A stretch of 64,000 nucleotides of DNA from Chiloscyllium plagiosum (lineage: Eukaryota): the NCBI RefSeq assembly GCF_004010195.1, contig NC_057716.1, positions 45,747,329 through 45,811,328 of the forward strand. The letters run 5' to 3'. Below the pieces are notes generated by a model. The model made no database searches and was not told the DNA's origin. It saw only the letters and a program-made list of their open reading frames with translations. This document shows, piece after piece, positions 6,040-63,434 of this stretch. The stretch's first letter is position 1; each line of letters starts with the position of its first letter. Made by a program: the position numbers and the translations under genes.

Positions 6040-6820
6040 AGAGCAGAGGAAAATCACATATACAGTGTATTCAAAAAGAATGGGTACCCAATGAACACAG
6101 TATGACAATTTCTCAGCAACAAATCCAAATAAGCAGACAAAACATGTCCCGAATCCATATCCACTCTCCCCTACATCAAAGACATCTTGGAAATGACTGC
6201 CAGACTACTCAGATCCCTTGGCATCATGGTAGCCCGCAAACACACCAATACACTAAAACAGCAGCTAATAAACTTGAAAGACCCTACACAGACAACAAGC
6301 AAAACTAATGTCATTTACAAAATACCTCACAAGAACTGTAACAAACAGTGCATTGGACAAACAGGCAGAAAACTAGCCACCAGGATACATGATCATTAAC
6401 TAGCCACAAAAAGACATGATCCACTCTCACTACTATCTTTACATACAGATGAGGAATGACACCACTCTGACTGGGAGAACACATCCATCCTAGGAAAAGC
6501 CAAACAGAATCATGCGCGAGAATTCCTAGAAGCACGGCACTCCAACTAGAACTCTATCAATAAACACATTGACTTGGATCCCATTTACCACTTCCTGAGA
6601 AAAATAATAGGAAATGATATCATCACAGGAGGTCACATCACCAACCCAAGGAAACCTAAACACATAAATAAAAAATGGGCCAAACCACCAGTGCTTCATC
6701 AGAGGTTCACTGATGATGTTACCCAGCATGGTGACACAACATCTGAAAACGAACCTTCCAACTCAGCAAGCGAACTTATATCCAGAACCTCAACCTGAGC
6801 TACAAATCTTCTCAAAACTC
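6040..6820 (+). mobile_element. Penelope-like element 3' part (GIY-YIG endonuclease plus pLTR)
   Basis: ORF 6187-6399 contains NVIYKIPHKNCNKQCIGQTGRKLATRIHDH; the 3' end has a degenerate hammerhead core (CTGATGA at 6710). Confidence 0.85.
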
Positions 6821-9679: not shown

Positions 9680-10170
9680 AGTGCAATGAAGGTTTACTAG
9701 ATTGGTGCCTGGGATGGCAGGACTGTCATGTAAGGAAAGATTGAGTCGGTTATGATTGTATTCACTGGGGTTCAGATGAATTAAGGGAGAGTCACACAGA
9801 GACCTATGAAATTCTAATGGGACTAAATAGTTTAGATGGAAGAAGGATGTCCCTGATGATGGGGAAGTCTAGACCAAGGGGCATAGTCTAAAGAGAAGAG
9901 GTAAACCTTTTATGACAGAGATGAGGAGAAATCTTTCACCCAGAGTGTGGTGAGCCTGTGAAATTCACCACCACAGAAAGTCGTCGAGGCTAAAACACTA
10001 CGTGTTTTCATGGAGGACGTCAATATAGCTTTTGTAGTTAAAGGGGTATAGGGGTGGGAGGAGTGGGGTTATCGTATTGATCAGCCACGATCATATTGAA
10101 TTATGGAGCAGGCTCGAGGGGTCGAATAGCCTACTGCTGCTCATATCCCTTGTATGTATCTATGTCTATG
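9680..10170 (+). mobile_element. Older CR1-like LINE 3' fragment
   Basis: gtgcaatgaaggtttactagattggtgcctgggatg...gagatgaggagaaat...ggagcaggctcgaggggtcgaatagcctactgctgctc. Confidence 0.75.
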
Positions 10171-13410: not shown

Positions 13411-15607
13411 ATGTGAATTCTATGACACCTCTTATTTTATTGTTTCTTTTACATAGGATTTTAACTAGATGTTGTCAAAGTATACATTTTAAAAGTATTT
13501 CTCTATAACTTCATTTCGGAAATTAATTAATTGACTGCAACATTAGTGACAAATTCATTACTTAAACCATCACAAATACCACATTTGTACCTGGTCTAGT
13601 GAAATCTCTACCTGGATTTTTGAAATTATTTTCTCAGGTTCCATTCCTCCTTCCCGACACACTAAAGGGCACAAGATGACAGATCTTTCCCAAGTCTATG
13701 CCAACTAATGAGGTGAATGTGGACTTACTTTCTGTTTGTCTTTTAGAAGATATCTGAAATTAATTTAACATTTTTGAGACGTCCAGTGAAATCAGCATGT
13801 AGAAACCATGAAGGGGGCTAGAAAAGAAAACCCCAATATATGACTCATCAACCGTCGCATCAATGAGCCAGTCTACCAGAATATGAATGCCAAATGATTT
13901 CTTAAAACTAAATACTATTTCAGAACATCATGCACAAAACAGACTCCCTGCTTAAGGTATATTTTTCAAGCATACCTGAAGAAAAATCAGTTTTACTCTA
14001 CTTTTAAGAACTTAATACCATAGCTGTTTTAGGTTACACCTGTTACACTGACAATGATTTTACGCCAACTTTTTAGATTCAAGGCAGTTCAGGGCCGAGT
14101 TTTATGATGTTAAACAACATTGCTGAATCAATTATTATAGTCTGTGCAGATCACAATTATGTCAGCATGTAAGTTATTTACAGATTGACAATTTGCACTG
14201 ACAGAATTTAGCAATTCTTTAAAAAAAATCTATGAAATAAAGGACTTTTGAATGCCAATTAATAAAAGACAAACAAAACAGAAACTACCATTAGCAATAT
14301 CTAAGATTTTACAGAGACCAAATAAACCTGATTCATTTAATATGCAAACTAACATTTCAAGATATGAAACTATTGAAAATGAAATTGATACTTCAGTTTA
14401 TTTAACAAAGACTACTAACGACATTGGAAGAATTTACTCTCAGGATGAGTGGATTATATGGGTCTGAAGAATCAGATTTGAGGGTTTTCTGCTTGTTGAT
14501 TCAGCAATCCAATATCATTGAATTGAGAGAAATATGGAGTTAACCTCACTGTTCAAATATATTTTAAAACTAAAAAAAATCTTTTAAACAACTGCACAAT
14601 GCAAACTTGTCCATCAAATGCCTACACATCAAGAATTGTCAGTGTAATTCAAGATTTGGTAATGGTTGCAAGGACCTTTTTGTGAATTAATACCAAAGAA
14701 ATAATTTTTCAGTGCCTCCTGCTTTGGAGAGGTTGAAAGGGGAAGAAAATACCTTAAACAGAGAGTCACACTAAAATCAGCATCCAAAGTTAGAGTCTTA
14801 GGCAATCTCTAAAGTTCAACTTGCAATATCCAGACTGGAACAAGGAATTCAAAAACACTTACACTATTCAACCATTTCTTGTTCATTGAATAATAATGTT
14901 TACACAGAACTTCAGAATAAACAATTTATAAAGTTTTGACCACAAAGATTATATTCTTGAAAAGCATGAAAGAAAAAAAGAAGCAGCATTCTGATCAATG
15001 TATTGAATTTGTTCTTTTTCCTTAAGGTATGGAATGGATCATATTTACGCTTTTGGCACTTGGTGTCAGCATCAATTGTCAGGTTAAGTACAACATGGGT
15101 CAGTTGCAGAGTGAATATCTCTGTTCTGTCCAACTGCAGTATAACACTGCTTTGATGCCAATACCCTTAATCGCCTCTGAATGAGATCAGTCAAAATTTG
15201 GCACAAATTGGCACTAAAATGGCAGTTTTTTTTGCTGTGGACCCACATCAACTAGAAACTGGATTTATTTTTGCAATCAAATTTCATATAGGATTTTTAT
15301 AGCTTGTATAAAAAGAAAGCTTCATTTGATCACCAGACTAGATTTAATCCAAAAAGCAGTGTGCTACCCACGTGATAAAAATAAATATTTGAAACTATAC
15401 AAAATTAAAACAAATTATCGATATTAATAAGTTCAAAATAGAGTTGGACAGACGGTAGAGGGTCATCACTAAATAAAATGTTTCTTTTTGCTCCTTATGC
15501 TTGCAGATCAGGATGCCTTTGCATCAGGGATACTTAACAGCATTCTTGGAATGAGGTTAAAAATCACACAACACCAGGTTATAGTCCAGCAGGTTTAATT
15601 AAAAGCA

Positions 15608-15642
15608 CACTAGCTTTCAGAGCGATGCTCCTTCATCAGGTG
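15608..15642 (-). ncRNA. Minimal hammerhead ribozyme motif (sense to the JAZF1-like transcript)
   Basis: Reverse strand cac-CTGATGA-a-GGAGC-atc-GCTCT-GAA-AGCT-A-gtg; G-U pair at the base of helix II. Confidence 0.62.
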
Positions 15643-15759
15643 ACAGTGGAGGGTTCAATCCTAGCACACAGAATTTATAGCAAAAATTTACAGTGTGATG
15701 TAACTGAAATTATACATTGAAAAATTGATTGTTAAGTCTTTCATCTGTTTGAATACCAT

Positions 15760-15794
15760 CACCTGATGAAGGAGCGTCGCTCCGAAAGCTAGTG
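15760..15794 (+). ncRNA. Minimal hammerhead ribozyme motif
   Basis: cac-CTGATGA-a-GGAGC-gtc-GCTCC-GAA-AGCT-A-gtg: intact core, 5-bp helix II, palindromic helix III, 3-bp helix I. Confidence 0.7.
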
Positions 15795-16552
15795 TGCTTC
15801 TAATTAAACCTGTTGGACTATAACCTGGTGTTGTGTGATTTTTAACTTTGTATACCCCAGTCCAACACCGGCATCTCCAAATCATTCTTGGAATGACACA
15901 TTTAGTAATATGCAGGAAATGAAAGTTGTTATTGTAAGTTGTTTTCAAATGATTCCAGTGTTTAAGTCATTAAAAATTTGACTAAAATTTGCTGCAAGTC
16001 TAATTTCATTTTAAATCGGCATTGGTACAGAAATATACATAACTGTTTCCATTTTAATACCAAAATGAAGCAGAAATGACAACTATTCTCATCAATTTTA
16101 CTACAAGAAATGCCTTAAGGGAGCAATTTCTTTGCTATTTGTTTGTGCACCAGAGATTAAAAATGGAACAGTATAGTCTAGTATAGTATTCTAGCCTTTT
16201 AAATATTGAATTGATTTCTCAATGTCAGCACAAGATTTGTAAATTCACCTCCCCAATTGGTTATTGGAAAATTATTGGAAAATTTGGTGTAGAACTGGCT
16301 CATATCATCGAGGCGTGCTCTACTCTTTTATCCCATCTCAGTGAGTATAGCGTGTGTGTAATCTATTTCTGCCTGAGCAGGATGTCATGGTCAACTGCGT
16401 GATGACAGGTGCTGCTGCAGTAAATATACTCGAGACAGGGCAGATTTGGACGGTTAGATCATTCTTATTTGCTGTCATTGCCTGTCAATTGACACAGTAA
16501 AATTAAGTTCAAGATCTTGATAACAGAAAGAGGAATCTCACTATTATACTAC

Positions 16553-27400: not shown

Positions 27401-30400
27401 TTGTCCTCCTTAGCTTCATCTCTTCTGCAGTACTTAAAATAAACCTCTTTGAACTCTTCGTTCATGACTCCAGTTTTGTTATTCACTCCTTTCAATCCAA
27501 CAGCGGCCAACCTTCCGCGTTCCTAGATTTCATTCTCCTGAATTCTTTTCACCTCCACCTGTTAGAGGTTCCTCTTAAAACCCACTTTCACCAAAGCTTT
27601 GGTCTCCTACAATCTTTCTCCAATCTCTGTAAAATGCCTTGGGAGATTTATGTTAAAAGAACTCGATATATGCAAATTATAGCTCATTTCCTTTTCTGCT
27701 TTCATGACTAGAAAAGCGCATGGTCAAACCAGTAATTCCCACTAGATTATATTAAAATCAAAGTTTACCTAACCACCACAATTCTACCAGCATTCCAAAG
27801 ATTCCATTACAAGCAAGACAGGATACTCAGTTCAAATTACTTTGCCAAAATAAATAAATCTACATTTATAGCTGCATAGTACCTTATCTGCTCATAAGAT
27901 CCAGCAATGTAAGGGACTCAACAATGTGTTTTGAATTGTACAGAGGTTTTGCTGATTTTCAATATTAATTCATTAAATAAGTTCTACCTACTTAGCCCAT
28001 GGATATCTTGTATAAGTCTATTTTAAAATGTATATTTATACAATGTTTATGTAAATTTATTATTGATATAATTATCAAAATCTGGCTCTAAAAGGCTGAT
28101 GTAGTTTTGCTTTGTTTAGAAGTACCAACCTGTTGGTGTTCCACTGCAGGCTGAAGAGGATGGTGTAACTGGTGGTGTCCCTGGAAAAGCAGAGCTTCCG
28201 TTACCAGGGTGAGGTGATGCAGGTGTGCCGCCCCTTCCCACAGGACTGGAAAGGGCTGGTGTTAACTTGGCCTGATGTCTTTTTCTCATCTGCTCACGCT
28301 CACGGCGTGCAGCATCAGTTAGAAATCTGAATAGGTTCAGGAATGTAAACAAGAAAAATAGCTGTATGATTACTGATTGTGAAGACCTGGCCACAAATCA
28401 CAAAATACCTACATCTTATTTGTTGCTGGTCACTTTTCATGTTAAGGTTTTTACTGCATCTACAAATAAGGGTTAAACTTGAAAGATCTTATTACAAGTC
28501 TGTGGGAGGTCTCTAGCTTTACTTACTGACTCTGGGGATCACCACTTTCAAGGCAAGATGAAACAAAACAAGTTTCAAAATACCCACAAGCTGCGTGCAA
28601 GAGTTCTAACTGGATTAACATTTATTGACTGTTTAAGCTTCCCTGCTTTTTTGCTGGAGGACAAAAATAAAGAAGTTTAAACTAGAGTTGTAGAAAACTG
28701 GACCGTAAAAGCAAAGACCAAAATTTAACCTACTGTCATCTTTTTTGTTGAGGTTTGACTCTGAATTTTTATGTTTTTATCTCAATGTAAATTAAAATAT
28801 ATTTTGATTTTGCACAACCATCTGATCTGTTTTCATCTCAAGTTTAAATTGTAAGATTCTTGCAAGAGAGAAAGATAGTTAAGGGTTTACGCTGAGTTTG
28901 CATTTTTGTATTGATTTTATGATACACAGGTATTTTGATTTATGGAGTGGTCATGTCAGTTTAACAAGCTGAAGGACATGCAATATCTCCAACATCATTA
29001 AAATTCAGAAGCCGCTAGAGCTAAATCGGTACACTGTCACGCACTATGTTTGGACAACAGGGGTCTTGGACATATGGGATGTCACCATTTTCACAGATAA
29101 ACTTACAACAAATAAGACTAATGTTTGGTCTAGGTTGAAGAATGAAAAACAGGATAACTGTTTGCTTTTTATAACTGATGAAACCCCCAACCTCAAGAGT
29201 GGTTCAAATAAAATTAGGATATAATTATCAAACATCATAAATGGATAAAGGGCCATTCTGTGATGCATCAGAGACCCCTATGGGTTATTGCGAATAATGA
29301 CAAATACACACTTACGTCAGTCAACAGTGCAGTCCTACTGGTTATTTTTTTCTCATACCATATAAAATTATATTTAGAAGGTGTGTCAAAATGGTCTGTT
29401 TTACATTTTTATTTTGTTTTTGAATTTAGCAAAAGAAAGAAATAAGGAGTAGTAGTAGACGAAATGGGTCCTTTAAGCCTGCTCTGCCATTCAATATGAT
29501 CGTAGCTGATTTTAGACTTGAATTCACTTTCTTGCCTGCCTCCCCCCCACCCCCATCCTTCAGTTCATTGGATCAAGAATCTGCCTCTCTGCTTTAAATA
29601 TAGTGGCACATTTACAACTCCCTGGCACAGAGAAATCCAGAAATTTACATCACTTTAAGTGAATAAATTTCTCATCACCCCATTCCCAAACTATTGCCTA
29701 TTTGTCTTGAGATTGGTGAATTTAGAATGCATAGCACAGACAGGCAAATAACCTGCCAATGCCTATCCTGTCAGAACCTTGTATTTTTCAATGGGATCAC
29801 CTCTCATTCTTCTGAACTCTAAGAATATAAACCCAATTTATTGAGCCTCTCATCACAGGACAAATCATTAACCTCAGAATCAATCTAGTGAACCAGCGCT
29901 GCTTTGCCTCCAACATTTCTGATGAAGGGCTTTTGCCTGAAACGTCAATTCTCCTGCTCCTCGGCTGCTGCCTGACCTGCTGTGCTTTTCCAGCACCACA
30001 CTCTCAACTCCAACAGAATATATCCTTCCTAATATATGGAGAGTGTATTTAAAACCGCATTTCTGGGTATGTTCTCAGTCAAACACTGTACAACTGTAGC
30101 AAGACTTCATTATCGCTGTACTCAAATTCCTTTGCAATAAAAGCCAATGTGCATTTGCATTCCTGTTTACTGTACACTTACATGTTTACTTTCTGTGAAC
30201 CTTGAATGGGTATATCCAAGTCCATCAGAAAATCGACAAATTTCAAGCCTTCTAAAAATGTTTTGTTTACTATTCTTATGACAGCTGCAACCAGCCTCAT
30301 ACTTCTCAATATTATACTTCATCTCACTAATGTCAGTTTGGACCTAAGCAAGTTGGTGAGACAGTAACCAAGACACCTTTCTTTGTCATAGAGTCTGACA

Positions 30401-33400
30401 GCACGGAGACTGGCCCTTTGGCCCAAACTGGTTCATACTGACCAAAATGTCTATCCACTCTAACCACATTTTTCTGCATTTGATCCATTTCCTTCTAATC
30501 CTTTCCTATCCATGTATTTATCCAAATGCCTTTTAAATGTTGTTAATGTACCCACCTCAACTGCTTCTGCTGGCAGCTCATTCAATATGCACACCACCCT
30601 GTGTAAAAAAAAAATTGTCCCTCAGATTCCCTTTTATTCTTTCCCCTCTAACTTTAAACTGATGCCCTCTAGTCCTTGATTCCCCAACACTGGGGAATAA
30701 AACTGAGTGTATTCATCCTATACATGCCCCTCATAATCTTATACACCTCCATCAGATCCCCCCTCAGTTTTCTAGGCTCAAAAGAAAAAAAACTCATGGC
30801 TTATCCAACCTCTCCCTATAACTCAGACTGTTGAGTCCTGGCAGCATCCTTGTAAATTTCTTCTGCACTCTTTCCAGCTTAATAATATCCCTCCTATAGC
30901 GAGGTAACCAAAACAGAACACGATATTCCAAGTGTGGCCTCACTAATGTCCTGTATAACTGCAATATAACTTCCAAACTTCTATACTTAATGCCCTAACT
31001 GATAAGGTTTCTTCACTGCCCTGTCTACCTGTGACTCTACTTTCAGAGAACCGTGCACCTGAACTGCGCTACACTCCTTAAGGCCCCACTATTCAACATA
31101 AAACTCTTATCTTGATTTGACTTTCCAAAACGCAAGACTTCACACTTTTCTATATTAAACTCCATTTGCCATTTCTTGGCTCACTACCCCAGCTAATCAA
31201 GATCCTGTTCAATTTCTGATAACCTTTCTCCCAGTCCATGATACCTCTTATTTTTGGTGTCATTGGCAAACTTACTAATCATGCCTTGGACATTCTCATC
31301 CAAATTATTGATTATAGGTAACAAACAGCAGTGGGCCCAGCACCAACCCCTGAGACACTCCTCTACTCACAGGCCTCCAGTCCGACAAGCATCCTTCCAC
31401 TATTACCCTCTGCTTTCTACCATCAAGGCAACTGTGTATCCGATCTGCCAGCTCTCCCTAGATTACATGTGATCTAATCTTCCAGAATAGCCGACCACTT
31501 GGAACATTATCAAAGGCCTTACTGAAATCCATATAGACTATATCTACCATCCTGTCCTTGTCAACCTTCCTGATCACTTCATCATAGAACTCTAACAAAT
31601 TTGTGAGGCATGATCTCCCACTCACAAAGCTATGCTGATTACTCCTAATCAACCCCTGTCTTTCCAAATGCATGTATATCTTATCTCATTATCTTCTCAA
31701 GGAACTTACCTACCACAGATGTTAGGCTTACCGGTCTACAATTCTCATGGATTTCTTTGCAGCCCTTTTTGAATAAGGGCACAACACTCGCTACCCTTCA
31801 ATCTTTCAGGACCTCACCTGTGGCTAACGATGTTGCAAAAATATCAGCCAGGGCCTCCACAATTTCTTCTCTAGCCTCTTGCATCCAATTCTCATACATC
31901 TAACACCTTTCTACTGTGATATTGAATGTCCTCAAGGTATGATCACTAACATCCCCAAGTTCCTAAGTCTTCATGTCTTTCTCCACAGTAAACACAGAGG
32001 AAAAATATTTATTGAGTACCTTGCCGAGAAATTATTGGCTACTCAATCTTACTGCTCCGTTCCACAACCAGTTCAATCTGTTCACCCTTTATATAAATAA
32101 AATCTTCAAAAGAGGGGAAATAAAACTGTGAAAGTCATTCAAACAACTCTGAGCAAAGATAAGCTTCATATCTCTCGGTCACCTTGAGATAGCAGGACTG
32201 ACGTTGAAGGGAAGGTTGAATTAGCTAGGATTATATTTGCTGAAAATGTGTTGCTGGAAATGCGCAGCAGGTCAGGCAGCATCCAAGGAGCAGGAGAATC
32301 GATGTTTCGGGCATGAGTCCTTCTTCAGGAAGGATTCCTGAAGAAGGGCTCATGCCCGAAACATCGATTCTCCTGCTCCTTGGATGCTGCCTGACCTGCT
32401 GCGCTTTTCCAGCAACACATTTTCAACTCTAATCTCAGCATCTGCAGTCCTCACTTTCTCCTAGGATTATATTTGCTGGAGTTCAGAAAAATGAGGAGGG
32501 ATCTCTTTGAAATCTATAAAATTCTAATAGTATTAGGTAAAGCATATATAGAAAGGTAGGGAGAGTTCCCAACGGTCATGGTGACAGTGGCTGATGCAGG
32601 AATTTTTGGGGGTGTGGGGGTGGTGGTGGACGAGATTTCCTGCACTAGGGCTCACCGTCTAAACCATTTAGGACTGAGATGAGGATAAATTTCTTCACCC
32701 AGACTGTGGTGGGTATACGGAATTCACTACCACAGAATGCAGTTGAGGCCAAAAAATTGTATGATTTCAAGAATGAATTGTATCTCGCACTTGATGCTAA
32801 AAGGATCAAAGGATGAGGCAAAAAAGCAGGAACAAGTTATTGGGTCGGATGATTGGCCATGAATGGCAGAGTAGTTTTGAAGGGGTAAATGGGTTACTCC
32901 TGCTCCTGTTTCCTATTATTCTATGTCACACAAGGCTTGAAAATTGAGTGTGTTTTCACAAATTCATTTCTTTAACATTTTATTCACTTTCAAGGCTTCC
33001 TCAATAACAGCATGTTTCAGTTCCAATGCATCATAACTTCTATCAGGCCTAGTCTGAACCCACAATGGATTGTTCAAACTTCACAACTGGTCTGATTCCT
33101 CCCTGGAAAATCATCTTTCTGCAAGGACCTGCCCTGATTTATCAGAATGTAATTAATAGTTTAAAAGACTGCTCATCCAAAATTACTTTTCACTCATTCT
33201 GGTTAATTTTTAGCCCTTTGTATATAAATGCTGACTTCCAATCTTAGATTCTTTTTTGTTGCTTGATCTATCACACCACTCAAATTTTATCGAACCTCCT
33301 CACAGATAATCACTGATGTGCATCATATAGGTGCCTGTAATTTTCTTTTTGTGGTAGCAGTGGAACATTGCTGAATTTGCTTGAAGCAACTTACTTCCAG

Positions 33401-39400: not shown

Positions 39401-42400
39401 CTAGTTAATACTGATATGATATTGTTAGTCTTACAAAATTGTTTATAAACGATTTATTAATTCAACGTGACTTTCTTGCACATTTCACCAATTCGGTTTT
39501 AAAACTATGGATATTACATTTGTCTAACTGATATGAGTAAAACATCAACTTAAAAAAATTGAGCTTCATCTTAAAAACGTTTTACTACAGAAAAGCTATT
39601 TAACATTGCGAGACCAAATTCTTACGTTTCCCATTATTCTACACAATAAAATTAACCCTGTACATTCCAACAGCTTGCTTAAAATGATAACACTTGTTAC
39701 TTGACACATGTATGCATTCCTTGGACTGCGACTTTCCCTTTCTTGACACTAAAAGTTGGGGGGTGGGGCGACCATGAACTAATTACCCATATGCTGATAA
39801 ATCTCAACTAATCACATGCGAACCAGCTGAAGAGTTGACTGGTGAGCATTAGTGAGTAATTCAGCCTCAACAGTCATTGTCAGTGGAACCCTCACCCCAG
39901 AAACTGCCGGAAATCAAAGGCTGGCAGCTTCCGTGTCTGAAAGTCCAGCAGTAAAGTCTTGCAGTGGTCTTCAGGGAATCCAACAGCGAGAAGGCAGGTC
40001 TTTTTCTTTTTACTCCTGCAGGGTGGGTATCATTGGGATAGGGGATTTGAGGGGTCAGAGACAAGGTCAAAGGGTGGTTTTCAGAGCCACCCCACTGTCC
40101 CCAGACAGTTTTCCCCCAACATTGGAACAACTGGAGATTTCCCCCCAAAGTGATTTCCCCCCACTCTCCCTGCAAAACCTGGCAAGCATGTTGTCTTGGT
40201 TTCCCAGTGGAGAAATCAGCCAATTTAATGGCTTGCCAGGAGGTATGTAATCAGGAAGGTGGTGAGTTAATATCCATAAATGGCTGTTCACTGGCCACTT
40301 AAGTGCTTTAATTCGAAGCTGGTCAGGAAAGACTCCAATTTACTTTCTCACCTAGAATTTATTTTTGATGTGGCAACAGGGAAGTGAATATCTCTCCAGG
40401 GTCAAATTGTCCAATAATTGCCCTTTCTCACTACCTCCAGGGAGAGGATAAATTCCAACTCTTGTGTAGCAATGATTGAATTTGTGCTTTCTGGACAAGG
40501 ATTAAAAGTCTGCAATAACTATGCTTCATGCTGACTGGAAAAGACATTCATATGAATTTGAATATTTCCCAGCTATGAATTTTCAGGATGCAACTCACCT
40601 CTAAAAGGAAACATGTTGACTTGTAGATTAATGTTTATGGCTATAAAATTCTAATTTACATTTCTTGACAAATTTGTGATCATTCAACATGCACCATTAA
40701 GAATTCTCACAAATTCATTTGTGAAAGACAGCATATGTTACAACAGCATGTACACTTTATCCCTGAAATTTACCATTTTTGAAATGATTGAATGTATTTA
40801 CTGGAAGAAATTCAGAATTATTATGAATGTGAGAGTTAAGAAGCAGTCTGTTGAGGTCTAACAGGTTGTGGTATGACAAGCTTTTAGATTCTTTCTGCAA
40901 TTCTCACATTGTAGGGATGTGGAAATGACAGTCACCCAGGAATTAGACGAAGGAAGATCAGAGTTATTATAATACAGCTCATCCACTCCATTCCTGTCTT
41001 CTATGGAAAAGACCATTGAGTCTCATTCCACCATCTTATTACTGCAGCCCTGCAAGTTTATTCGAAAGTGCTTATCATTTTGTTTTGAAATTGCCTCTGG
41101 TCCATCATTCTCATAAATAGGAGGTTTTTTTTTAGATTAGATTAGATTACTTACAGTGTGGAAACAGGCCCTTCAGCCCAACAAGTCCAAACCGACCCTC
41201 CGAAGAGCAACCCATCCAGACCCATTCCTCTACATTTACACCTTCACATAAGACTACGGGCAATTTAGCATGGCTAATTCACCTAACCTGCACATCTTTG
41301 GACTGTGGGAGGCAACCAGAGCACCTGGAGGAAACCCACGCAGACACTGGGAGAATGTGCAAACTCCACACAGACAGTTGCCTGAGGTGGGAATTGAACC
41401 CAGGTCTCTGGCGCTGTGAGGCAGCAGTTCCAGGTCTTTACCATTTACTGTGTACAAAATTTCTTCCTCACCCCCGTGCACTTCTTGCCTTAACCTGAAA
41501 TCTACGAACCTAGCCTTCTAATAACCAGCTAATGGGAACAGCTTTTCTTTGTCTATCTTATTTAAACCTAGTTAAAAATCACACAACACCAAGTTATAAT
41601 CCAACAGGTTTAATTGGAAGTACGCTAGCTTTCGGAGCATCGCTCCTTCATCAGGTGATAGGGAGGTAAGGAGCGATGCTCCAAAAGCTAGTGTGCTTTC
41701 AATTAAACCTGTTAGACTATAACCTGGTGTTGTGTGATTTTTAACTTTGTACACCCCAGTCCAACACCGGCATCTCCAAATCATTATTTAAACCTGTCAT
41801 TATATTATCCAATTCCATCAATGTCTGCTGCATTTCCTTTGTTCCAAGCAAAATAGCATCAACTTTTTCAATCCAATCTTGTAGTTAAAATCCCTCATCT
41901 TTCGAACAATTCTGATAAATCTCCTCTGCACCCTCTCAAGGTCCACATTGTTCTGAAAGTATGGTGGACAAAACTAAAGACTGTGTTCTAGTTGTGGCAT
42001 GACTATGCTTTCTAAAGGTTCAGCACACCTTCTCTAATTTTGTATTCTATACCAGAATACCTACAGCTCCGCCTTCAACGCTATAATTCCAACCAAACTA
42101 ATCTCTAAACTCCAAGACCTAGGTCTCTGCTCTGCCCTCTGCAACTAGATACTTGACTTCCTGACCCACAAACCACAATCAGTGAGGATAGGCAACAGCA
42201 CCTCCTGCACAACAACTCTCAACACTGGTACCCACAAGGCTGCATTCTCAACCCTGTTCTGTACTCTCGATACAATCATGATTATGTGGCCAATTCCGTC
42301 CTAACTCCATCTACCAGTTCACTGTAGGCTGGATATCAAACAATGACAAGACAGAATACAGGAAAGAGATAGAGTGCTTACTGTTGTGGTGTAAAGATAA

Positions 42401-45400
42401 CAAGCTCTCCATCAACATCAGCAAAACTAACAAGCTGATCATTGACCAGGAAGCAAGGAGGAGGGCATGCCCCTACTACATCAAGAGATCTGAGGAGGAG
42501 ATGCTTCTGAGTGTCAGGTTGCTAGCAGTGAGGATCACCAACAATCTGTCCTGGACCACTCACGTTGATGTCAAGAATATGGTGCTGGAAAAGCACAGCT
42601 TTTCCTGATGAAGGGCTTTTGCCCAAAACGTCGATTCTCCTGCTCCTCGGATGCTGACTGACCTGCTGCGCTTTTCCAGCACCACATCTTGACTCTAATC
42701 TCCAGCATTTGCAGTCCTCACTTTCACTCACGTTGATGGACAGTCAAGAAGGCACAACAACACCTCTTCTTCCTCAGGAGATCAAGGAAATTCAACATGT
42801 CTCACTAACAATAATAAATGCACCATAGAAAGCATTCTGTCTGGATGCACCATGGCTTGGTTTGGCAATACTTTTGCCCAGAACTGTAAGAAACGGAGAG
42901 TTATGAACACAGTCCCAGTCCATCATGCAAGCCAACCTTCCATCTATTGACTCCATCTACAAGGCAGCCAACATCAAAGACCTCAACATCAAAGACTATA
43001 ATCTCTTCCAACTTCTTCCATCCGGCAGAAGATACAAAAGCATAAACACATGTACCAACAGTTTTAGGAACAACTTCTTTCCCGCGGTTATTAGACTTCT
43101 GAATGGACCGTTTAAATTTCAAATCTAATGTTGATACTGCTTTTTGTGTACTTTCATTGCAGCTATAACTTTGTATTCCTTGCTCTGTTCTATCATCCTA
43201 TGATCTTTGTATGGTAGTGATCTGCATATACTGCACACAAAAAAAATTTTTTCACTGTATCTAAGTACATATAATAATAATAAATCAAACCAAATCAAAT
43301 CTTATAAGAAGCCCATGATTCCATATATGTTACCATTGTAATCTTAATATGTCCTACCACCTTCAAAGATCTGTGTATGTGAAATCTAGGTTCAACTGTC
43401 ACTGGATCATGTTAAAGCGCAGATCCTTTTAAAGGTCAATCAGGACAGGTCCAGAGTTGACTGAGAGCCAGTGATACTGATTTGTATTTAGAACATAGAA
43501 CATAGAAGAATACAGCGCAGTACAGGCCCTATGGCCCTCAATGTTGCGCCGATCCAAGCCCACCTAACCTACACTAGCCCACTATCCTCCATATGCCTAT
43601 CCAATGCCCGTTTAAATGCCCATAAAGAGGGAGAGTCCACCACTGCTACTGGCAGGGCATTCCATGAACTCACGACTCGCTGAGTAAAGAAATTTAAGAG
43701 CTCAGTTCTTGGAGAGGGCTCTTGCGGTGTTGTGGTAGCACTGCTATCTCTGGACTAGGAGACCTAGGTTCAAGTCCCAGTTGCTCCAGAGGTATGTAAC
43801 GCTATCTCTGAACAGGTTGATTAGAAAATATGAAGAGCTGAGTTCCTAAGAGGGGTGCAGGCAATGTAATGCAAGGGTAGTGTCCAATCAGATTTTCTTC
43901 CCTAATAAGTATATTAGTCAACCAGATGTATTTTTATAATAATCAATGATAGTTTCATGGTCAATGTATCATTACTAGCTTTCAATTCTAGATTTAATTA
44001 ATTGTTGTGGATTTAAACCCTTGCCCCAAGAGTATTAGCTTGAGCCTCTGGAATATTAGTCCTGTAACATTACCACTACACCATCTTCTCTTCTCAGTTT
44101 ATTAACATGAATCGTATCTGATGATTCTTGCAGGCTTGTTAACTCCCAGTTCAAGAATGCCATTAGAGGGGCTTTAGAGAAGGCTTAATGTTCAGAACAC
44201 AACCTGGAGATAAATATCATCTACAGCAACTAGAATTTTGAAAAGTAAGCAGAAAGATGCAAGTGGATTGATCAAGTTATATTTTGCATTGCACACATGA
44301 AACAATATCCCCTTCCAAATTACATGTGAAAACTAAACATCACTGCACCAACTTGTTTAAAAAGAATGAACTGATGGGAAAATATCCCAACTTTTCAATG
44401 CTTTCTGCAAAACGGAGTTTAGATTAGATTAGATTACATTACATTACAGTGTGGAAACAGGCCCTTCGGCCCAACAAGTCCACACCGACCCGCCGAAGCG
44501 AAACCCACCCATACCCCTACATTTACCCCTTACCTAACACTACGGGCAATTTAGCATGGCCAATTCACCTGACCCTGCACATCTTTGGACTGTGGGAGGA
44601 AACCGGAGCACCCGGAGGAAACCCACGCAGACACGGGGAGAACGTGCAAACTCCACACAGTCAGTCGCCTGAGGCGGGAATTGAGCCCGGGTCTCCGGCG
44701 CTGTGAGGCAGCAGTGCTAACCACTGTGCCACCGTGCCGCCCACGGTGTTGTACTATGTGACTTGTTTTCTGGTACAGCAGTCTTCAATCCCATTATCTT
44801 TAGCTTTCTTTCAAGCCTCTGATTTAATTACAATGCATTATGCTCTTCAGTTGTTTAGTTGGTCAAATAAGAAATAAAATAATAGCTATCATCATCTTCT
44901 CCCCACAAAAATATCATTTGTCTCCAAGTTAGATATATTACTGAGGAAGGGTCACTCGTCCCGAAACGTTAACGCTGATTTCTCTTCACAGATGCTGCCA
45001 GACCTGCTGAGCATTTCCAGCAATTTCTGTTTTTGTCTCTAGATATATTACTAGCAGGATAGAGATACGGGACACAGTGAAGCAGAGGTCGATAAAATCT
45101 ACATAAAGAAATAGGCTGTCCGTTAGCAAATACAACATAAAAACTATTATGAATGGATGGCTCAGTACCTACATTTTCAATAAAACATGCTGAAAACAAT
45201 GTATTAGTATATGACAAAACAAAACTGAAATGGATGAATTGTCACAACATAAAACTACATGCATTTTACTACATATTATTATTTACATATTTTATAAATA
45301 AACAAGCTATTACAGGCAAAGAAATGAGTTGGCTCTTCAAGTATATTCAAAAAGCATTTGAAATAATTGATAAAAGACATTTTATAAAACATAAGTTGTT

Positions 45401-48529: not shown

Positions 48530-48635
48530 TACCAAAACAGAAGTGCTAGAAAAGCTCAGCAGGTCTGGCAGCATCTGTGAAGAGAAATCAGAGTTAACGT
48601 TTCGGGTCCAGTGACCCAAAACATTAACTCTGTTT
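48530..48635. mobile_element. Family C mini-element folded back at helix II
   Basis: cagagttaacgtttcgggtc-cagt-gacccaaaacattaactctg. Confidence 0.7.
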
Positions 48636-48945: not shown

Positions 48946-50732
48946 CATGGCCTGAGGTAGTCACTGAGGAGGATGAGGTTACCATCCTCACAGAGTGATG
49001 TCATGATCTTTGGCTTCCTTTCGTCCTTTGATAGTAGGAATATCTGTGCGGCAGGTAGCCTTGCAGTGCTCCAGTGCAGCAGTGCGTATCTCAAACACAA
49101 ACAGAGACAAATCAGCAAGCTGTCTCCACCTAATTTGAGGCCAGATGGACAGAATGACTTAGAAAGGGCCAAGAGCAGAGCCCACAGCATACATGGGCCA
49201 CTGAGGTCTTCTCTTTATGACTGTGCAGTATTGTGCTTTACAAGTACAATGTAAATAATGACACTTGAAGTTATTGTGTGAGCCTCCATTTCTAATGGTG
49301 AAGCAATGAAACTGGCATGAGGTGATGAAGGTGAAACAGTTGGGCACATATCAATCCTTCATGGTGATAAGAGTGGACACATTCAGGCTGCATCTTCACT
49401 GGGCACATAAACAGCTCAGACTGAGCTCCAGAACTGTGGCTCCATGAGACTCAGGTGAAACATGCCTCAATCAAATGATTCCTGAAATTTGACAACTCAA
49501 TGAGACCTTCATGTCTTGTGCCAGGCCTGGCCACCTCCCTGGGCAGCTGGAACTAGGGCTCTGTTTCTTCTTTCTCCAACACCAATGATGAGCTGTGTCT
49601 TTCAAAGACTTTGTACTTTTCAGGGTTCATATCCCTGAAGGGTCATATATATTAAGGAGAACATAGCAGACTGTCACATTGTGCAAGATTTTTAATGAAG
49701 CAGCTACCTGACCAGTACAGGAACTGAAGATACATCTTCAGAAGCCTGATAGTCAGCTGAGATATTGGCTCTGGTCAAATCGCTTGTGTGCCTGTTTCTC
49801 AGATTCTTGTGAAGAGGTCTTCAAGTGATATCCCTCGTCCCTTAGAAGTTTTCTATGTACTTTTGGGACGATTGAGTAAACAATTGTGGCAGCCTAACTG
49901 TGGAGGATTAAGGGATCATGGTGTCTGCCAGGAAGTCAAGCCCACATATGAAGAAAGCTCTTCTTTTGGTCATTGAGGGAGTAGGAGCTATTCCTGTTGA
50001 TGTACTTAAGCCAATCACTGGACAATAATGATGCCCTACAACTGGTGGAATTCAGTGATGACAGTGATGAAAAGAAATGCCCTTTTAGCCTGGGAGGTCC
50101 CACTCATATTGATGTACTGCCCTGCTCTGGAAAATAAGGCAAATGTCACCTGAACAGTCAAGTTTGTGCAGCCATTTGTGAAATGCTACCACAGCCCACA
50201 GCCTGTCTTTGGAAGAAGCAGGAAACAAAGCAGTTGTGTGTCAAACCTATATGGATTGCCACAGTCTCCTGTAATACTGGGTCTCAACTATCTCCAGGTA
50301 GCTCTGTGTTCACTTGTAGATTCTGTTCTAAATGGACAACCTCCCTGGCTCTCTGTGGAAGATGAAGCCCAAATGTGACAATACCCTTTCGTGCTTAGGA
50401 GGCAACTGCCCACTCTCCTAATCCTTTGTGCTGAGCTGATGATGCCTATTTCTCATTGGGTGAGTTGCGTTTTGCACTGTTCACCCCTTTATCAGTCTCA
50501 GTTAATCCTCTAAGGGGGTGGGGGGTGGGTCGCAAGGATTGATTCACTGCAGTCTTCGTGTAGCTGGTCTTTCCCAGACAGTGAACATAGCGTTTGTGCC
50601 CTATGAAAACCACAACAATCTCTTAACAAGTGACTCTTGAAGAATCTTGTTTTGCCTTTGTAATGGATCATAATGGAATGAGTAGGATTGATGTTCTGGT
50701 TTCCCAGTGAAATTGGCCAACACAGGAATGGA

Positions 50733-50876
50733 CAAAGTGAGGACTGCAGATGCTGGAGCTCAGAGTCGAGAGTGTAGTGCTGGAAAGGCACAACAAGTCA
50801 GGTAGCATCTGAGGAGCAGGAGAATCGACATTTCGGTCTTAAACCCTTCATTAGGAATTTCTGATGAAGGGCTTAT
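50733..50876 (-). mobile_element. Family A mini-element (minus arm plus start of inverted arm)
   Basis: aaagtgaggactgcagatgctgg...gacatttcgg...cccttcattaggaa-tttctgatgaagggcttat. Confidence 0.75.
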
Positions 50877-52153: not shown

Positions 52154-52271
52154 TGTGAGTACACACTCGGACCTCAAACAACACAGATTTACTTATTAGT
52201 CATTTCATTGAACAACAAAAACACAAATAGCTTGAAGTGCTCTACATTAACAGTTTTTAACAAAGCTGTTA

Positions 52272-52420
52272 TCTGTTGTTGTGGTTCTGTTCGCCGAGCT
52301 GGAAGTTTTTGTTGCAAACGTTTCGTCCCCTGGCTAGGCGACATCATCAGTGCTTGGGAGCCTCCTGCGAAGCGCTTCTTTGATGTTTCCTCCGGTGTTT
52401 ATAGTGGCCTGTCCCTGCCT
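52272..52420 (-). mobile_element. Penelope (Poseidon-like) pLTR with intact hammerhead core, family D
   Basis: Reverse strand gca-CTGATGA-t-GTCGCC-tagcca-GGGGAC-GAA-ACGT-T-tgc (52313-52353); related to 6690-6770. Confidence 0.8.
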
Positions 52421-53200
52421 GCCCTGACTGTTTGACTCACTTCTGTTCTCAACTGTACAATTCTCAGATTGATCTCTTTCCTTACTATCTCCCTGGGTGC
52501 CACCCCAACTCCCCCCCTCCACCTTACTCGTTTTGAACCCTCTCAAGCAGTTATCGCAAATTCCCCTGCCAGTATATCAGTCCACTTCCAATTCAAGTGC
52601 CATCCGTCCTTGTATAGATCACTTGCACCCTAAAAGACATTCCAATGATGCAAAAGTGTGAATCCTTCTCCCATACACCAGTTCCTCAGCCATGCATTCA
52701 TTTGCTCTGTCCTCCTAATCCTGCCGTCACCAGCTCATAGCACTGGGAGTAATCCAGATATTACTACCCTTGAGGACCTCCTTTTTAAATTTCTGCCTAA
52801 CTCTCTGTAATCTCCGTTCAGAATAGCAAACTTTTCCCTTCCTATATCGTTGGTTCCAATGTAGACAATGACCTCTTGCTGGCCCCTCTCACCCGTGAGA
52901 ACATTCTCCATCCTCTCTGAGACATCCTTGATCCTGGCACCAGGGAAACAACACACCATTCTGCTTTTTCTCTACTTGCCACAGAAACGTCTGTCTGTAC
53001 CTTGGACTACAGAATCCCCGAACACAATTGAGCTCCTGAAAGCCGATGTATCTCTCGTTGCATTAGAGCCAGTCTCAATACCAGAAACTTGGTTGTTTGT
53101 GCTACGTTCCCCTGAGAATCCATCACCCTCTACATTTTCCAAAATGGCATACATGTTTGAAATGGGATATCCACAAAAGACTCCTGCCATGGGTGCCTAA
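52420..53200 (-). mobile_element. CR1 ORF1 fragment (SGNH esterase domain)
   Basis: SIVFGDSVVQGTDRRFCG, VCCFPGARIKDV and VIVYIGTNDIG...VVISGLLPV. Confidence 0.88.
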
Positions 53201-53204
53201 CTCT

Positions 53205-53425
53205 GTTACCCTCTGGTTGTTGAATGTGAAGTGTGTTGTGAGGCACATGTCCAGTAGTTTAAGTATGCCGTCTTTGTTGATAGGTTCAGAGTCCTGTTTT
53301 CTGTTCTGTATGTCCAGTAGGTTGGCTATTGTTTCTCTGGCTAGGGTTTTGTCAATCGAAGTGAACAGTGCCGTCACGTCGAATGATATCATGGTTTCTT
53401 CTTTGTCTATGTGTATCTTTGCTGT
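53205..53425 (-). mobile_element. Penelope-like reverse transcriptase fragment
   Basis: MISFDVTALFTSIDKTLARETIANLL...ILKLLDMCLTTHFTFNNQ. Confidence 0.85.
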
Positions 53426-53499
53426 TATCTTTCAACTAATTGGTGGCATAGCGGATGAGATGTTGTTATTGAAGTCTAGGACCCAAGGTCTAATAAAAT

Positions 53500-54265
53500 G
53501 ACACTCCAGGTTGGTCAACATTTCCCTTGCAGGCCTGCTGCAGTCACAAACTTGAAAAACGGCATCTCATTTTCTCCTTAGGGATCCTGCAGCCTCGAGG
53601 ACTCAACACAGAGTTCAATAAATTTAGAAAATAACAATCAAAGAACTGGAGGTGCTGGAAATCAGAAATACAAACAGAAATTGATGGAAAAGCTTAGCAA
53701 GTCTGGAAACATCTGTGGAGAGAAATCAGAGTTAACATTTTAGGTTCAGTGAGTTTTCTGTGGAAGGGTCACTGGACCCAAAAGTTTAATTTTGATTTCT
53801 CTCCATAGATGCTGCCAGATTTGCTGAGTTTTTCCAGTAATGTCTGTTTACTCAACCCACACCCAGTCCTTTTTTGACATGGGGTGTTTTTAGCACAGTC
53901 ACTCATTGTCATGTATTGCCAAGTCTGTTATCACATCATACCAGTTGCATTCAGTACAGTTCACCCATTTTCCCCTACTCTTAGCTCTTATGATCACTTA
54001 TTCAGCTTATCTTATGCCCTCACCCTCAATCCATAATCTCTTTGTTCACCTACCCCTTTCATACGTCACCCTCTCTCTGGGCTCTATCTCCACCTATCTC
54101 TTATCTTCCTCTGCCCCACCCAACAACTTTGGCTTCCACATAAATACCACCTTTACCTAGCTGCTAACAACATGATGTAGCATCATCAGACTCAAAACAT
54201 TAACTCTGCCTCCACAGATGCTGACAGACCTGCGGAGTCTCTCCAGCAACTCCTGCTTTGTTATT
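53500..54265 (+). mobile_element. Old Neptune-like Penelope 3' end with nested family C palindrome (~53630-53850)
   Basis: KLEKRHLIFSLGILQPRGLNTEFNKFR; C/T-rich 3' region; inverted family C arms around ~53760. Confidence 0.7.
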
Positions 54266-58823: not shown

Positions 58824-58895
58824 AAAAGTGAGGACTGCAGATGCTGGAAATCAGAGTATAGATTAGAGTGGTGCTAGAAAAGCACAGCAGGTCAC
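58824..58895 (-). mobile_element. Truncated family A tail
   Basis: aaagtgaggactgcagatgctggaaatcagag...gaaaagcacagcaggtca. Confidence 0.7.
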
Positions 58896-60140: not shown

Positions 60141-62082
60141 TCCTTATGACACATAATAACCATCAAGCTAGAGATTTTTGGCACTTCTGTAGTGGTCTAC
60201 TGAACATGTATGCTGGGAAATATTCAAGGATGGAGCTGCTTTCTTTTGTGCTTTTGGTTTTGTATCTGGTTGCTTCAAGTTGATTACATTGTATGGTAAT
60301 ATTTGGTCAGGGGAGCAATTTTACAAAACTGCAACTAAACATCATATTTCCAATAAACAGTTCTATGCTGGAATAGAGTTTAACTTGGTTGCACCAGCCA
60401 AATTTAAGGTATGATGTAATGAAAAACAGGTTCTCCAACACATCACAAAACCATCTTAGGAGTCAGAAAGGAATTAAGCTAGCCTGCAGGAAAAGTAATT
60501 GCTCTACTAAGAACAGATCAGACAAATTCCTCAAGGCACTGTATATCCGTTCCTGCTAAGTGTTCAAGATTTCTCTGTGGGGCCTCAGTTCTAGCAGTCA
60601 GTGACTACTACACAATTCTCATTTCACACAATCTCAGCACAGCTGGAGTGCATCAAATCCTAATACTCCATTTGGTCATTTCATGACACCATCATGCCAC
60701 ATTGTTCTCTACCTTTCACTAGATCTATTAAATTCAATTGTTCCACACCATAATAACTTCGGCAAGTTTCCTTTGGACTCACAAATGATGTACTACGAAG
60801 TGCTGACAGAGAGTGTTCTTTCCATTTTGGGAGCTGGGTGGATGGAGATAAGCGCCTGATTTATAAAGAACTGAATTTCCAGATATGAAAATGTGATTGA
60901 AGTTTGCAGGCCTCCCACAGAGCATGCAAAAGCCTTATTAGAGCACTGAAATTAATGCTAATGGGTCCCATAATGCATTTAACAATGTTTCTCACCTCAT
61001 CACTCTTTTGGCACTGTTTGCCAGTTTAAAACAAGCACTAGCAGGATTTGCTAGTCTGCCTTAGAGAAGTTGGATTCTCGTAGCTGACTCTTTAGGACAA
61101 AGTTTCAATTTTCTTCCTTTAAAATAATTTCATTTGTATTATATATTTTCTGTCACTTGTCAGATTGTTGCTGGCACTTGCAGCTAGATTGCTGCATTTT
61201 CAAAATGATTTTACACCAACATTTTCCCCATAGCACAGTTGCTTACAGCAGCTGCTTCATTAGCAGTAACCAGAGTGTTAAGCAGAGCATTTTTATTGCG
61301 CATTCCAATGCTGTTCTGGATGTGAAGAAGGAAAGAAAGAGGACTGCATGCAGAGGGAACAAATGCACATCGAATTGTATCTCAAAATTATAACAGCTAC
61401 TTGGTTCCAATCCAGCAGTCAACTTTTAAGGTCTAGGCAAACCATGAAGAGATCTGTCTTCCTCATCAACACTTCATATGGGAGTTATACAGGTTTGGAT
61501 TTTGCAATTAGCAACAATGTAACTGCACTTACCATTTATCATGCTTACAGTTGCCCAGAATTTTCATGGACATTTGAACAGAAACTTACAGCTACAAGAG
61601 ATCCTTTTCAGCATTCTCTTTTAGGGATCTATGATGTTTGTCCTGCTCATACACATATCATTTTAGGCGGATTGAACAATCCTTAAAAACAGACAGGTTG
61701 CAAGATCAGTTTGACAGTTTGGGTGACTTAAGCACTACATTGGTTGGATAAGGAAAAGATTTGGGGCAGGTCCACTCCTGAAGACTTCAGACCACCGACT
61801 CCCACAGCTACCTGGATTACACCTCTTCCCACCCTACCTCTTGCAAAAATGCCATCCCGTATTCCCAATTCCTCCGCCTCCGCCGTATCTGCTCCCAGGA
61901 GGAGCGGTTCCACCATAGAACACACCAGATGGCCTCCTTCTTTAGAGACTGCAATTTCCCTTCCCACGTGGTTAAAGATGCCCTCCAACGCATCTCATCC
62001 ACATCCCGCACCTCCGCCCCCAGACCCAACCCCTCCAACCGCAACAAGGACAGAACGCCCCTGGTGCACACCTTCCACCCTA

Positions 62083-62567
62083 NNNNNNNNNNNNNNNNNN
62101 NNNNNNNNNNNNNNNNNNNNNNNNNNNNNNNNNNNNNNNNNNNNNNNNNNNNNNNNNNNNNNNNNNNNNNNNNNNNNNNNNNNNNNNNNNNNNNNNNNNN
62201 NNNNNNNNNNNNNNNNNNNNNNNNNNNNNNNNNNNNNNNNNNNNNNNNNNNNNNNNNNNNNNNNNNNNNNNNNNNNNNNNNNNNNNNNNNNNNNNNNNNN
62301 NNNNNNNNNNNNNNNNNNNNNNNNNNNNNNNNNNNNNNNNNNNNNNNNNNNNNNNNNNNNNNNNNNNNNNNNNNNNNNNNNNNNNNNNNNNNNNNNNNNN
62401 NNNNNNNNNNNNNNNNNNNNNNNNNNNNNNNNNNNNNNNNNNNNNNNNNNNNNNNNNNNNNNNNNNNNNNNNNNNNNNNNNNNNNNNNNNNNNNNNNNNN
62501 NNNNNNNNNNNNNNNNNNNNNNNNNNNNNNNNNNNNNNNNNNNNNNNNNNNNNNNNNNNNNNNNNNN
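62083..62567. other. Assembly gap (N run)
   Basis: 485 N. Confidence 0.99.
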
Positions 62568-62630
62568 ACTCTCTCCCCACCCCTACCCTCCTCTAGCTTA
62601 TCTCTCCACGCTTCAGGCTCTCTGCCTTTA

Positions 62631-62666
62631 TTCCTGATGAAGGGCTTTTGCCCGAAACGTCGATTT
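62631..62666 (+). ncRNA. Minimal hammerhead ribozyme motif
   Basis: Intact CUGAUGA and GAAA core, 4-bp GC helix II with UUUU loop, ACGU helix III, GUC cleavage triplet; helix I is weak. Confidence 0.68.
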
Positions 62667-63039
62667 TGCCTGTCCTCGGATGCTGCCTGAATTGCTGTGC
62701 TCTTCCAGCACCAATGACACCCAGTGAACCAACTTAACCTTTTATTGTATGGGACTGCTTCAAACATCACTATCTGTAATGATGAAATTCAAACTCATGC
62801 CCCCAGAACATTTGTCTTGGGTTGAAGATTACTAGTTCAATGATACCACTACACTCACCATTATCTTCCTTTCCTGTCATTTTAAAACAAACTGTAATCA
62901 GATAGCCAGCCCCGATACAGCACCATAACAAAAATAAAATCAAACGGTCAATGGAAATGTACAGAAACAAATGGAACCTTATCAAAATCAAATCAAAACA
63001 TTGTTGTCTGGGGTGAAATTTCATCCCAGGCTGGTCCCT

Positions 63040-63142
63040 AAAAATAAAAACAGAAAAACTGCGGATGTTGTAAATCAGCAACAAAAACAGAAATTGCTGA
63101 AAAAGCTCAGCAGGTCTGGCAGCGTCGAGCGACCCTTCCTCA
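63040..63142 (-). mobile_element. Family C fragment
   Basis: aaaacagaaattgctgaaaaagctcagcaggtctggcagc...gacccttcctca. Confidence 0.7.
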
Positions 63143-63316
63143 AAATGGCCGAAAAATCTCTACTATATCAATGGGCACCACATATTCCTTCTCAGTGGAC
63201 GTCCAAATGTCAATGTAATTGGGGAAAAGGGGCTGACAGTCAGGTACTGAGCGCTCCTCCATGATCTGCTGCCTGCTCGTGTTGATGGTCACTTTAGCCA
63301 GGCCCCGGAAGAGATT

Positions 63317-63434
63317 TGAGCTGAAAATGTGTTGCTGGAAAAGCGCAGCAGGTCAGGCAGCATCCAAGGCACAGGAGAATCGACGTTTCGGGCATAAGCC
63401 CTTCTTCACTTCTTCACTGCAGTCCTCACTTTCT
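63317..63434. mobile_element. Family A palindromic element with right arm deleted
   Basis: Left arm like 32241-32327 joined directly to the tail ctgcagtcctcactttct; TSD cccggaagagatt at 63304-63316 and 63435-63447. Confidence 0.85.

Follow-up and report, generated by a model that had tools for sequence, protein, structure and literature searches.

A 64,000-nucleotide stretch of the genome of the shark Chiloscyllium plagiosum (NC_057716.1, positions 45,747,329 to 45,811,328; the whole stretch is hereafter the window) carries at 32225..32478 a hairpin-forming insert without coding sequence, here called the type copy. It is probably the hammerhead-bearing end of a Neptune-type Penelope-like element (PLE) placed twice, head to head, the likely product of two separately primed short complementary DNAs (cDNAs) joined in one insertion. 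We are confident that this is an insertion of a PLE end whose palindrome was created at insertion, and favor the two-primer route with less assurance. Nearly half of the inner arm ends cluster at the hammerhead's 5′ edge, and our proposal that the 5′ end of the RNA causes this is a finely balanced one that we put forward tentatively.

The type copy comprises two inverted arms of 91 nt each (32241-32331 and 32335-32425) that are 98% complementary, differ at two positions (32318/32348 and 32261/32405) and are separated by a 3-nt spacer. A 35-nt tail follows (32426-32460), and an exact 18-bp direct repeat bounds the whole (32225-32242 and 32461-32478). A sequence-only reading, made without database searches, had described just such a hairpin with 91-bp arms, a 3-nt spacer, a tail and a 14-18 bp duplication, and this structure is real. 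The target-site duplication (TSD) can be read as 14-18 bp because the final 4 nt of the 18-bp repeat equal the element end too, an overlap that is likely primer-template microhomology. The motif CTGAAGA-helix II-GAAAC, which that reading placed in each arm, is indeed present in both, although on opposite strands and with a helix II mismatch in the left arm. The parts of the type copy are as follows, with offsets here and throughout counted from the C of CUGA; the arms are pseudo-long terminal repeats (pLTRs) and the older repeat resembles a long interspersed nuclear element (LINE).

32225..32242: left TSD, 18 bp, its last 4 nt being the element end as well
32243..32331, minus strand: inverted tail-less pLTR arm, offsets +85 to -3 from C of CUGA (32328), with a helix II mismatch at 32318
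Within 32243..32331: hammerhead core of this arm, antisense to the right arm
32332..32333: letters GG where the two arms meet
32334..32425, plus strand: direct pLTR arm, starting at offset -4, with ACAT in place of palindromic ACGT
32338-32365, plus strand: minimal type I hammerhead core, predicted cut after 32365
32426..32460, plus strand: PLE "tail" of 35 nt, with predicted pairing to the sequence directly after the hammerhead
32461..32478: right TSD, the target being the apparent 3′ part of an older LINE-like repeat

The arm is, judging from its relatives, the pLTR of a Neptune-type PLE. A PLE reverse transcriptase (RT) coding frame (61794-62081) is followed downstream, in sense, by a sister arm (62630-62715) that is 77-79% identical to the type arms and shares 84-85% with two further copies; the two would form one element across a 485-base gap of Ns. 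The frame is 89-92% identical to three Chiloscyllium punctatum proteins. In Pfam the proteins of the relatives match RVT_1 and GIY-YIG, the latter over the Pfam cut-off in one of three, and a Stegostoma PLE protein continues into a hammerhead-like frame at its end. Relatives P0002 and P0004 have a CxxxxCxxC linker, a region that falls in the gap in the window's own element. The Neptune-type label rests on this motif, and a CX2-5CxxC linker before the endonuclease is a trait of both Neptune and Nematis (PMC8557442). The inserts also have the features of endonuclease-positive (EN+) PLEs, namely the 35-nt one-sided tail, fixed outer ends, an inverted 5′-truncated copy and seven exact TSDs; an inverted tail-less pLTR joined to a tailed arm is the published signature of PLE insertion (PMC3846280; PMC8557442). 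A Pfam search of three window frames gave no useful match. The open frame of the arm was considered as the start of an open reading frame and rejected, as it has no homologs, two repeat matches are due to chance, and the near full-length relative P0121 begins with a different peptide that is unmatched in the window.

The arm hammerheads appear to be genuine minimal type I motifs. In an alignment of 13 arms from four families, both sides change in 7 of 9 pairs; none of 500 shuffles attains the covariation score, and slid controls score lower, with helix I just 56% paired and the alignment rows related to one another. Together with the arm downstream of the PLE RT, this covariation bears out the Penelope origin and minimal hammerheads proposed from the letters. 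The motifs resemble those of metazoan PLEs in the short helix I, the unpaired base before helix II and the palindromic 15.2/16.2 pairs, and also in occurring as many families per genome, mostly as solo motifs of truncated PLEs, with opposite-strand pairs 100-700 bp apart (PMC4209133). The available text of that paper names no shark families. Rfam returned eight matches, all hairpins well under gathering scores and none to a hammerhead family; pattern scans found no match in viral contigs and five chance matches of 21-25 nt each in metagenome contigs.

The whole type insert is predicted to fold as one hairpin (-186.5 kcal/mol), in which the predicted pairing probability of helix II is about 1e-16, versus 0.95-1.0 in a single arm. 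A transcript of either strand carries one sense hammerhead, predicted to be buried in the long hairpin. When one arm of family 1 or 2 is folded by itself, its tail is predicted to pair with the sequence directly following the hammerhead (32368-32384/32438-32449 and 15807-15822/15859-15876). This pairing is a possible common protein-binding stem; the fold z-scores (-0.4 and -1.6) are not significant.

Short copies number 14 in the window and add up to 2,026 bp, three other ends extend farther upstream, and arm-only copies occur about once per 4-5 kb. The other copies listed by the sequence-only reading as the same design do exist, and their TSD-flanked members are discrete insertions. All seven TSDs claimed are exact (14, 8, 18, 12, 14, 13, and 13 bp); by comparison, no flanking repeat exceeded 9 bp among 3000 randomly chosen position pairs, of which 11 gave 8 bp or longer. 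The design is less uniform than was proposed: the short copies split into three arm sequence families, only four of the eight two-arm copies have two arms of at least 79 nt (the type copy, 15555, 41570, and 53630), the rest combining one long arm with a stub of about 20-30 nt, and at 48530, 50733, and 53630 no flanking duplication of at least 8 bp was found at the copy boundaries.

63317..63434: family 1, nearest sister of the type copy (92-94%), 13-bp TSD; inverted arm that stops at +1, a duplication of 8 nt, and 19 nt of tail end
42571..42724: family 1; short inverted arm (end about +60) and tailed arm from -3, 14-bp TSD
29916..30007, plus strand: family 1; single tail-less arm from -4/-3, 8-bp TSD
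50731..50876, minus strand: family 1; tailed arm from -4, with 20 nt left of the inner part of the inverted arm; the junction is symmetric, TSD not found
58825..58894, minus strand: family 1 tailed fragment from +54, without hammerhead
15555..15882: family 2, 14-bp TSD; the inverted arm is long, reaching about -119 by eye, and the tailed one starts at -4
41570..41783: family 2, 12-bp TSD; the inverted arm reaches -13 and the tailed one starts at +6
44943..45039, plus strand: family 3; single tail-less arm starting at CUGA, 13-bp TSD
48531..48635: family 3; inverted arm and short stub, junction within helix II
53630..53850: family 3, diverged (81%); minus-strand tailed arm to +11, tail-less arm from about -2
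54186..54259, plus strand: family 3 fragment from about +15
63043..63145, minus strand: family 3; tailed arm that has an internal deletion and whose inner end, by eye, is near -2
52270..52440, minus strand: family 4 PLE end; hammerhead at 52350 and upstream sequence
6232..6790, plus strand: family 4, decayed coding PLE end; similarity to the GIY-YIG region at 6232-6495, hammerhead at 6710
61778..62715, plus strand: presumed 5′-truncated coding PLE whose hammerhead arm (62630-62715) belongs to the arm family of the type copy; pLTR sequence precedes this arm, and the RT thumb (61794-62081) lies across the assembly gap (62083-62567)

Arm ends fall into two classes. The outer ends are nearly constant, at about +119 to +124 in tailed arms and, in tail-less arms, near +85 to +92 for family 1 and +83/84 for family 2, with 3-5 nt matches between tail-less ends and target in three of six TSD copies. 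Inner ends vary: the pairs in two-arm copies are -3/-4 with GG (type copy), +60/-3, -4/-4, +1/+104, about -119/-4, -13/+6, +8/+17, and +11/-2. Junctions are thus distinct in all eight two-arm copies of the window, and the longer arm can be either one. At the same time, 11 of 24 inner ends in the window lie at -5..+1, which is the helix I 5′ strand, and families 1, 2, and 3 all contribute to them. None of 200,000 uniform simulations placed 11 of the 20 ends located between -40 and +105 in any 7-nt span. The pile-up holds at no fewer than 6 of 13 when one end is counted per insertion, and at 10 of the 18 ends bounded by a TSD or a partner arm, none of which lies at the cut site (+27/+28). We found no description of such a pile-up, or of shark PLE stumps, in the literature as covered by titles and abstract beginnings, a coverage outside which subscription papers and Repbase lie.

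Several origins of these ends were considered and rejected. Ribozyme cleavage would not produce them, as the ends shun the cut site. A cap-derived G at the junction is present in the type copy and inconsistent in the others. A template from which an intron reaching to helix I had been spliced, the situation in Drosophila virilis (PMC4209133), is at odds with the lack of an AG before -4 in families 1 and 2 and of a constant upstream exon at the junctions. The 8-nt duplication of the adjoining arm at the junction of one copy (63409-63416) resembles a templated insertion in end joining. The initiator consensus is YYANWYY, and an initiator-like match centered on -4 occurs in family 1 and not in family 2, a weak lead.

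A 903-base stretch with three arms is matched by 94,080 and 98,145 contig records from two species; these figures are not a copy number, and the arm-bearing PLE family is very abundant. The joints reported here are those in 15 of 242 joint rows and 12 of 405 rows of a second contig table. Ten of the 15 (62665/62667 to 6336x, 62701/62713 to 63417, and 63311 to 63417) were set aside because colinear arms switch there between two reference copies. The 11 inversion joints listed, from the two species, all differ; the twelfth row, 63437 to 62676 (X9), is head to tail, with a tail end followed by an arm from about +42, and was excluded from the inversion count. This partial tandem suggests that tandem forms occur elsewhere in a related genome. 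The deepest inversion joint listed has a depth of 264 over 5 contigs (unique DNA has about 4-7, and the arms reach millions), and among the rows listed 9 of 22 contig and read joint ends lie at -5..+1 and one of 22 at the cut site (+27).

RNA reads are consistent with passive transcription: 3,814 reads from one fragmented polyadenylated (polyA) single-cell run, a library unable to reveal small circles, cover both strands without piled ends. Inversion joints are rare in RNA (X21): among the rows listed, two reads cross them, where 540 loose ends occur at that point. Either hairpin RNAs are captured poorly, or rows of this kind may fall outside those listed.

We propose that the inserts arise in four steps. 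The PLE RT-endonuclease would nick both target strands, 8-18 bp apart. Each 3′ end would then prime cDNA synthesis from one or the other of two constant internal start sites; the products would be a tailed arm (+120 to +124) and a tail-less one (about +85 to +92), and in some cases 1-5 nt of microhomology would assist. Each cDNA would end early, about half of them at the hammerhead 5′ edge (helix I, -5..+1), most simply if the template RNA starts there as a run-off from the 5′ pLTR; alternatively, the template may be trimmed back to the folded, protein-bound ribozyme, or the RT may stall at it. The two cDNA ends would finally be end-joined with short insertions or microhomology, anew each time, and therefore every junction would be new; loss of one arm would leave a single-arm insert. 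Ribozyme cleavage likely plays no part in making the inserts. In vitro work on a PLE supports components of this scheme, having identified two internal RT start sites with the tail as the stretch between them, cutting and extension of both strands, insertion for which hammerhead cleavage is dispensable, and products whose length follows the 5′ end of the RNA (PMC11167929).

A number of points weigh against this interpretation. Its core steps, two target-primed cDNAs, run-off or stalling at the hammerhead edge, and end joining, are pieced together from sequence; several offsets in the window were placed by eye, and the two arms of one insertion are not independent. The RT-linked arm is only 77-79% identical to the type arms, and the N gap that separates it from the RT appears about 400 nt shorter than the spacing in Stegostoma predicts. 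The pile-up in contigs and reads may be inflated by -4 also being the divergence point of two subfamilies, and perfect (young) palindromic centers fold in assembly graphs and would escape the contigs. Two joints recur, 63404 to 62630 in 19 (X1) and 15 (X9) contigs and 63408 to 62630 in 20 and 9, their exact letters not being visible. Moreover, 540 RNA reads exit the type-subfamily arm with an upstream-like plurality consensus (agreement 0.5), and RNA depth on the coding-linked arm is 397 reads at +36, 132 at -13, and 107 at -25. The stop at the hammerhead 5′ edge is preferred, not absolute. The polyA reads show no RNA start, which a fragmented polyA library could hardly have shown.

An unlikely alternative, which may hold together with the two-primer reading, is that the short copies themselves give rise to a noncoding single-arm RNA of about 130 nt, from hammerhead to tail, that is mobilized in trans like a short interspersed nuclear element (SINE), the palindrome still being built at insertion. 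The 14 short copies against three longer ends in the window and the clustering of 5′ ends at one place speak for such a template; pLTRs are enough for mobilization in trans (PMC3846280), and nonautonomous PLEs exist (PMC8557442; 10.64898/2026.07.22.740005). A check for a short-only master did find a preferred 5′ end, yet one common to three families and to copies running on upstream; the same boundary in three unrelated arm families points to a common mechanism rather than separate masters, type-subfamily copies continuing upstream are common, and the 3,814 reads, a weak test given the polyA library, show no discrete RNA ends. The ACAT of both type arms, which looks like CpG decay and could derive from an aged template copy, had been taken to mean that both were copied from one template. 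It is real, but weak on its own, as CpG decay gives ACAT in 3 of the 13 other legible arms (and ATGT in 2), and the arms of the copy at 48530 disagree, one reading ACGT and the second ACAT. Nor does it separate the two-primer reading from the single-arm template, because both predict one template. It would also suit a somewhat less probable route, proposed for rotifer PLEs (PMC3846280, Discussion), in which one cDNA or antisense template folds back and self-primes so that the inverted arm is copied from the first. Variants common to both type arms, the symmetric center at 50857, the near-symmetric one of the type copy and the junction at about 48612 inside self-complementary helix II would all suit fold-back. 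Many junctions are, however, strongly asymmetric in both directions (+60/-3, -119/-4, +1/+104), the tail-less outer end is fixed and shows the 3-5 nt target matches in three of six TSD copies that second priming predicts, and single tail-less arms with TSDs occur (29916, 44943).

The sequence-only reading had favored a nonautonomous, retrozyme-like palindromic unit that is transcribed, self-cleaved or circularized, and reinserted whole, mobilized in trans by Penelope proteins. Dependence on a PLE protein survives from this proposal, a palindromic replicating unit does not, and we consider the latter very improbable. Real hammerhead motifs, high density, clean TSDs, and junction positions that recur near the hammerhead edge would fit it, and animal retrozymes descend from PLE pLTRs (10.64898/2026.07.22.740005). 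Its two hammerheads, on the other hand, lie on opposite strands, sequestered in the predicted hairpin; the window has no tandem array, coding elements have the same arm, and ends shun the cut site (0 of 18 in the window, 1 of 22 in contigs and reads). The type copy also lacks the palindromic ACGT thought necessary for dimer cleavage (PMC4209133); if its template had ACAT, the dimer-cleavage palindrome was therefore already lost, yet the element inserted. Recurrent identical junctions, whose tabulation had been named as the test of unit replication, were not seen in the window (8 of 8 differ) or among the inversion joints listed (11 of 11), the deepest of which is far below the arms in depth; some identical junctions are in any case expected without unit replication because arm ends pile up at one place. 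This diversity largely refutes the unit. A MITE (miniature inverted-repeat transposable element) or other DNA transposon does not fit the one-sided tail, TSDs of 8-18 bp, and variable centers.

Second-strand priming has a precedent in L1 twin priming, in which the second target strand primes a second cDNA to give a 5′ inversion with microhomology. Its segments cover different parts of one RNA, whereas the shark arms cover the same sequence, and because of this two RNAs or two pLTRs would be needed. Among PLEs, published EN+ insertions are alike in their head-to-head arms, one-sided tail of 30-40 bp, palindromic centers, and heavy 5′ truncation, with TSDs of 8-10 bp versus 8-18 bp in the shark copies (PMC3846280; PMC8557442). 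They differ in that most shark copies are arm-only, at about one per 4-5 kb, and in the pile-up, of which the available passages on EN+ PLEs make no mention. Poseidon of Anolis (PAc) likewise has two RT start sites that define the tail and both strands cut and extended; its hammerhead precedes the start sites by about 100-140 nt, insertion does without cleavage, and product length follows the template 5′ end (PMC11167929). PAc belongs to another clade, the shark element having a Neptune-type linker, and shows no target-RNA homology, whereas several shark copies have 1-5 nt matches; the joining of two cDNAs is not addressed in the available text (PMC11167929). Non-LTR retrozymes are similarly noncoding, hammerhead-bearing, PLE-derived, and flanked by larger TSDs, but are same-sense tandem units yielding monomer and circular RNA, in contrast to the inverted, nontandem shark inserts that do not end at the cut site (PMC7229834; 10.64898/2026.07.22.740005).

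The surroundings of the type copy offer further observations. It appears to sit inside the 3′ part of an older LINE-like repeat, its empty site aligning across the join with two other window repeats at 71% (9710-9825 and 30826-30735). We take the repeat to be a LINE from the look of its frames, which recall LINE RT ends. The suggestion that several copies interrupt older LINEs therefore stands for this copy, the one of the seven with TSDs that is positive by empty-site alignment; for 42571 we presume an interruption, as the frame beside it looks like the end of a LINE RT. In reads the element often runs on as CTA past the tail, and on this basis the tailed end of the type copy, too, may carry some 3 nt of microhomology. 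Positions 32440-32464, where the tail of family 1 passes into the next letters, look like a branch point, pyrimidine tract, and AG. Minus-strand frames 24560-24841 and 28116-28397 resemble two exons of one zinc-finger gene, which we assume to be JAZF1-like (Pfam gave no match for the first), and the type copy may sit in its intron or flank. The minus-strand frame 53123-53470 contains an RT motif, ISFDVTALFTSI, which we take to be Penelope/Poseidon-like; it precedes the family 4 hammerhead at 52350 by about 800 bp, an interval that holds other sequence, and a family 3 palindrome lies directly beyond the frame.

The insertion architecture is already published, and the pile-up is a modest mechanistic lead. 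Hairpins of this kind should not be labeled retrozymes, MITEs, or microRNA precursors. The inserts bear on two parts of the PLE replication cycle, the origin of inverted pLTRs and the role of the hammerhead, and the density of stumps together with the pile-up makes two questions testable, two primers versus fold-back and RNA start versus stall. It is possible, if rather doubtful, that shark PLE transcripts begin a few bases before the hammerhead, that each subunit of a dimeric RT-endonuclease, priming internally in the 5′ pLTR, makes a "strong-stop"-like run-off cDNA, and that most insertions are two joined run-offs. If so, this genome would be a very large natural record of PLE first-strand intermediates, a map of where the RNA begins and of the two RT start sites, with the hammerhead fold serving as a 5′ boundary rather than as a cutter.

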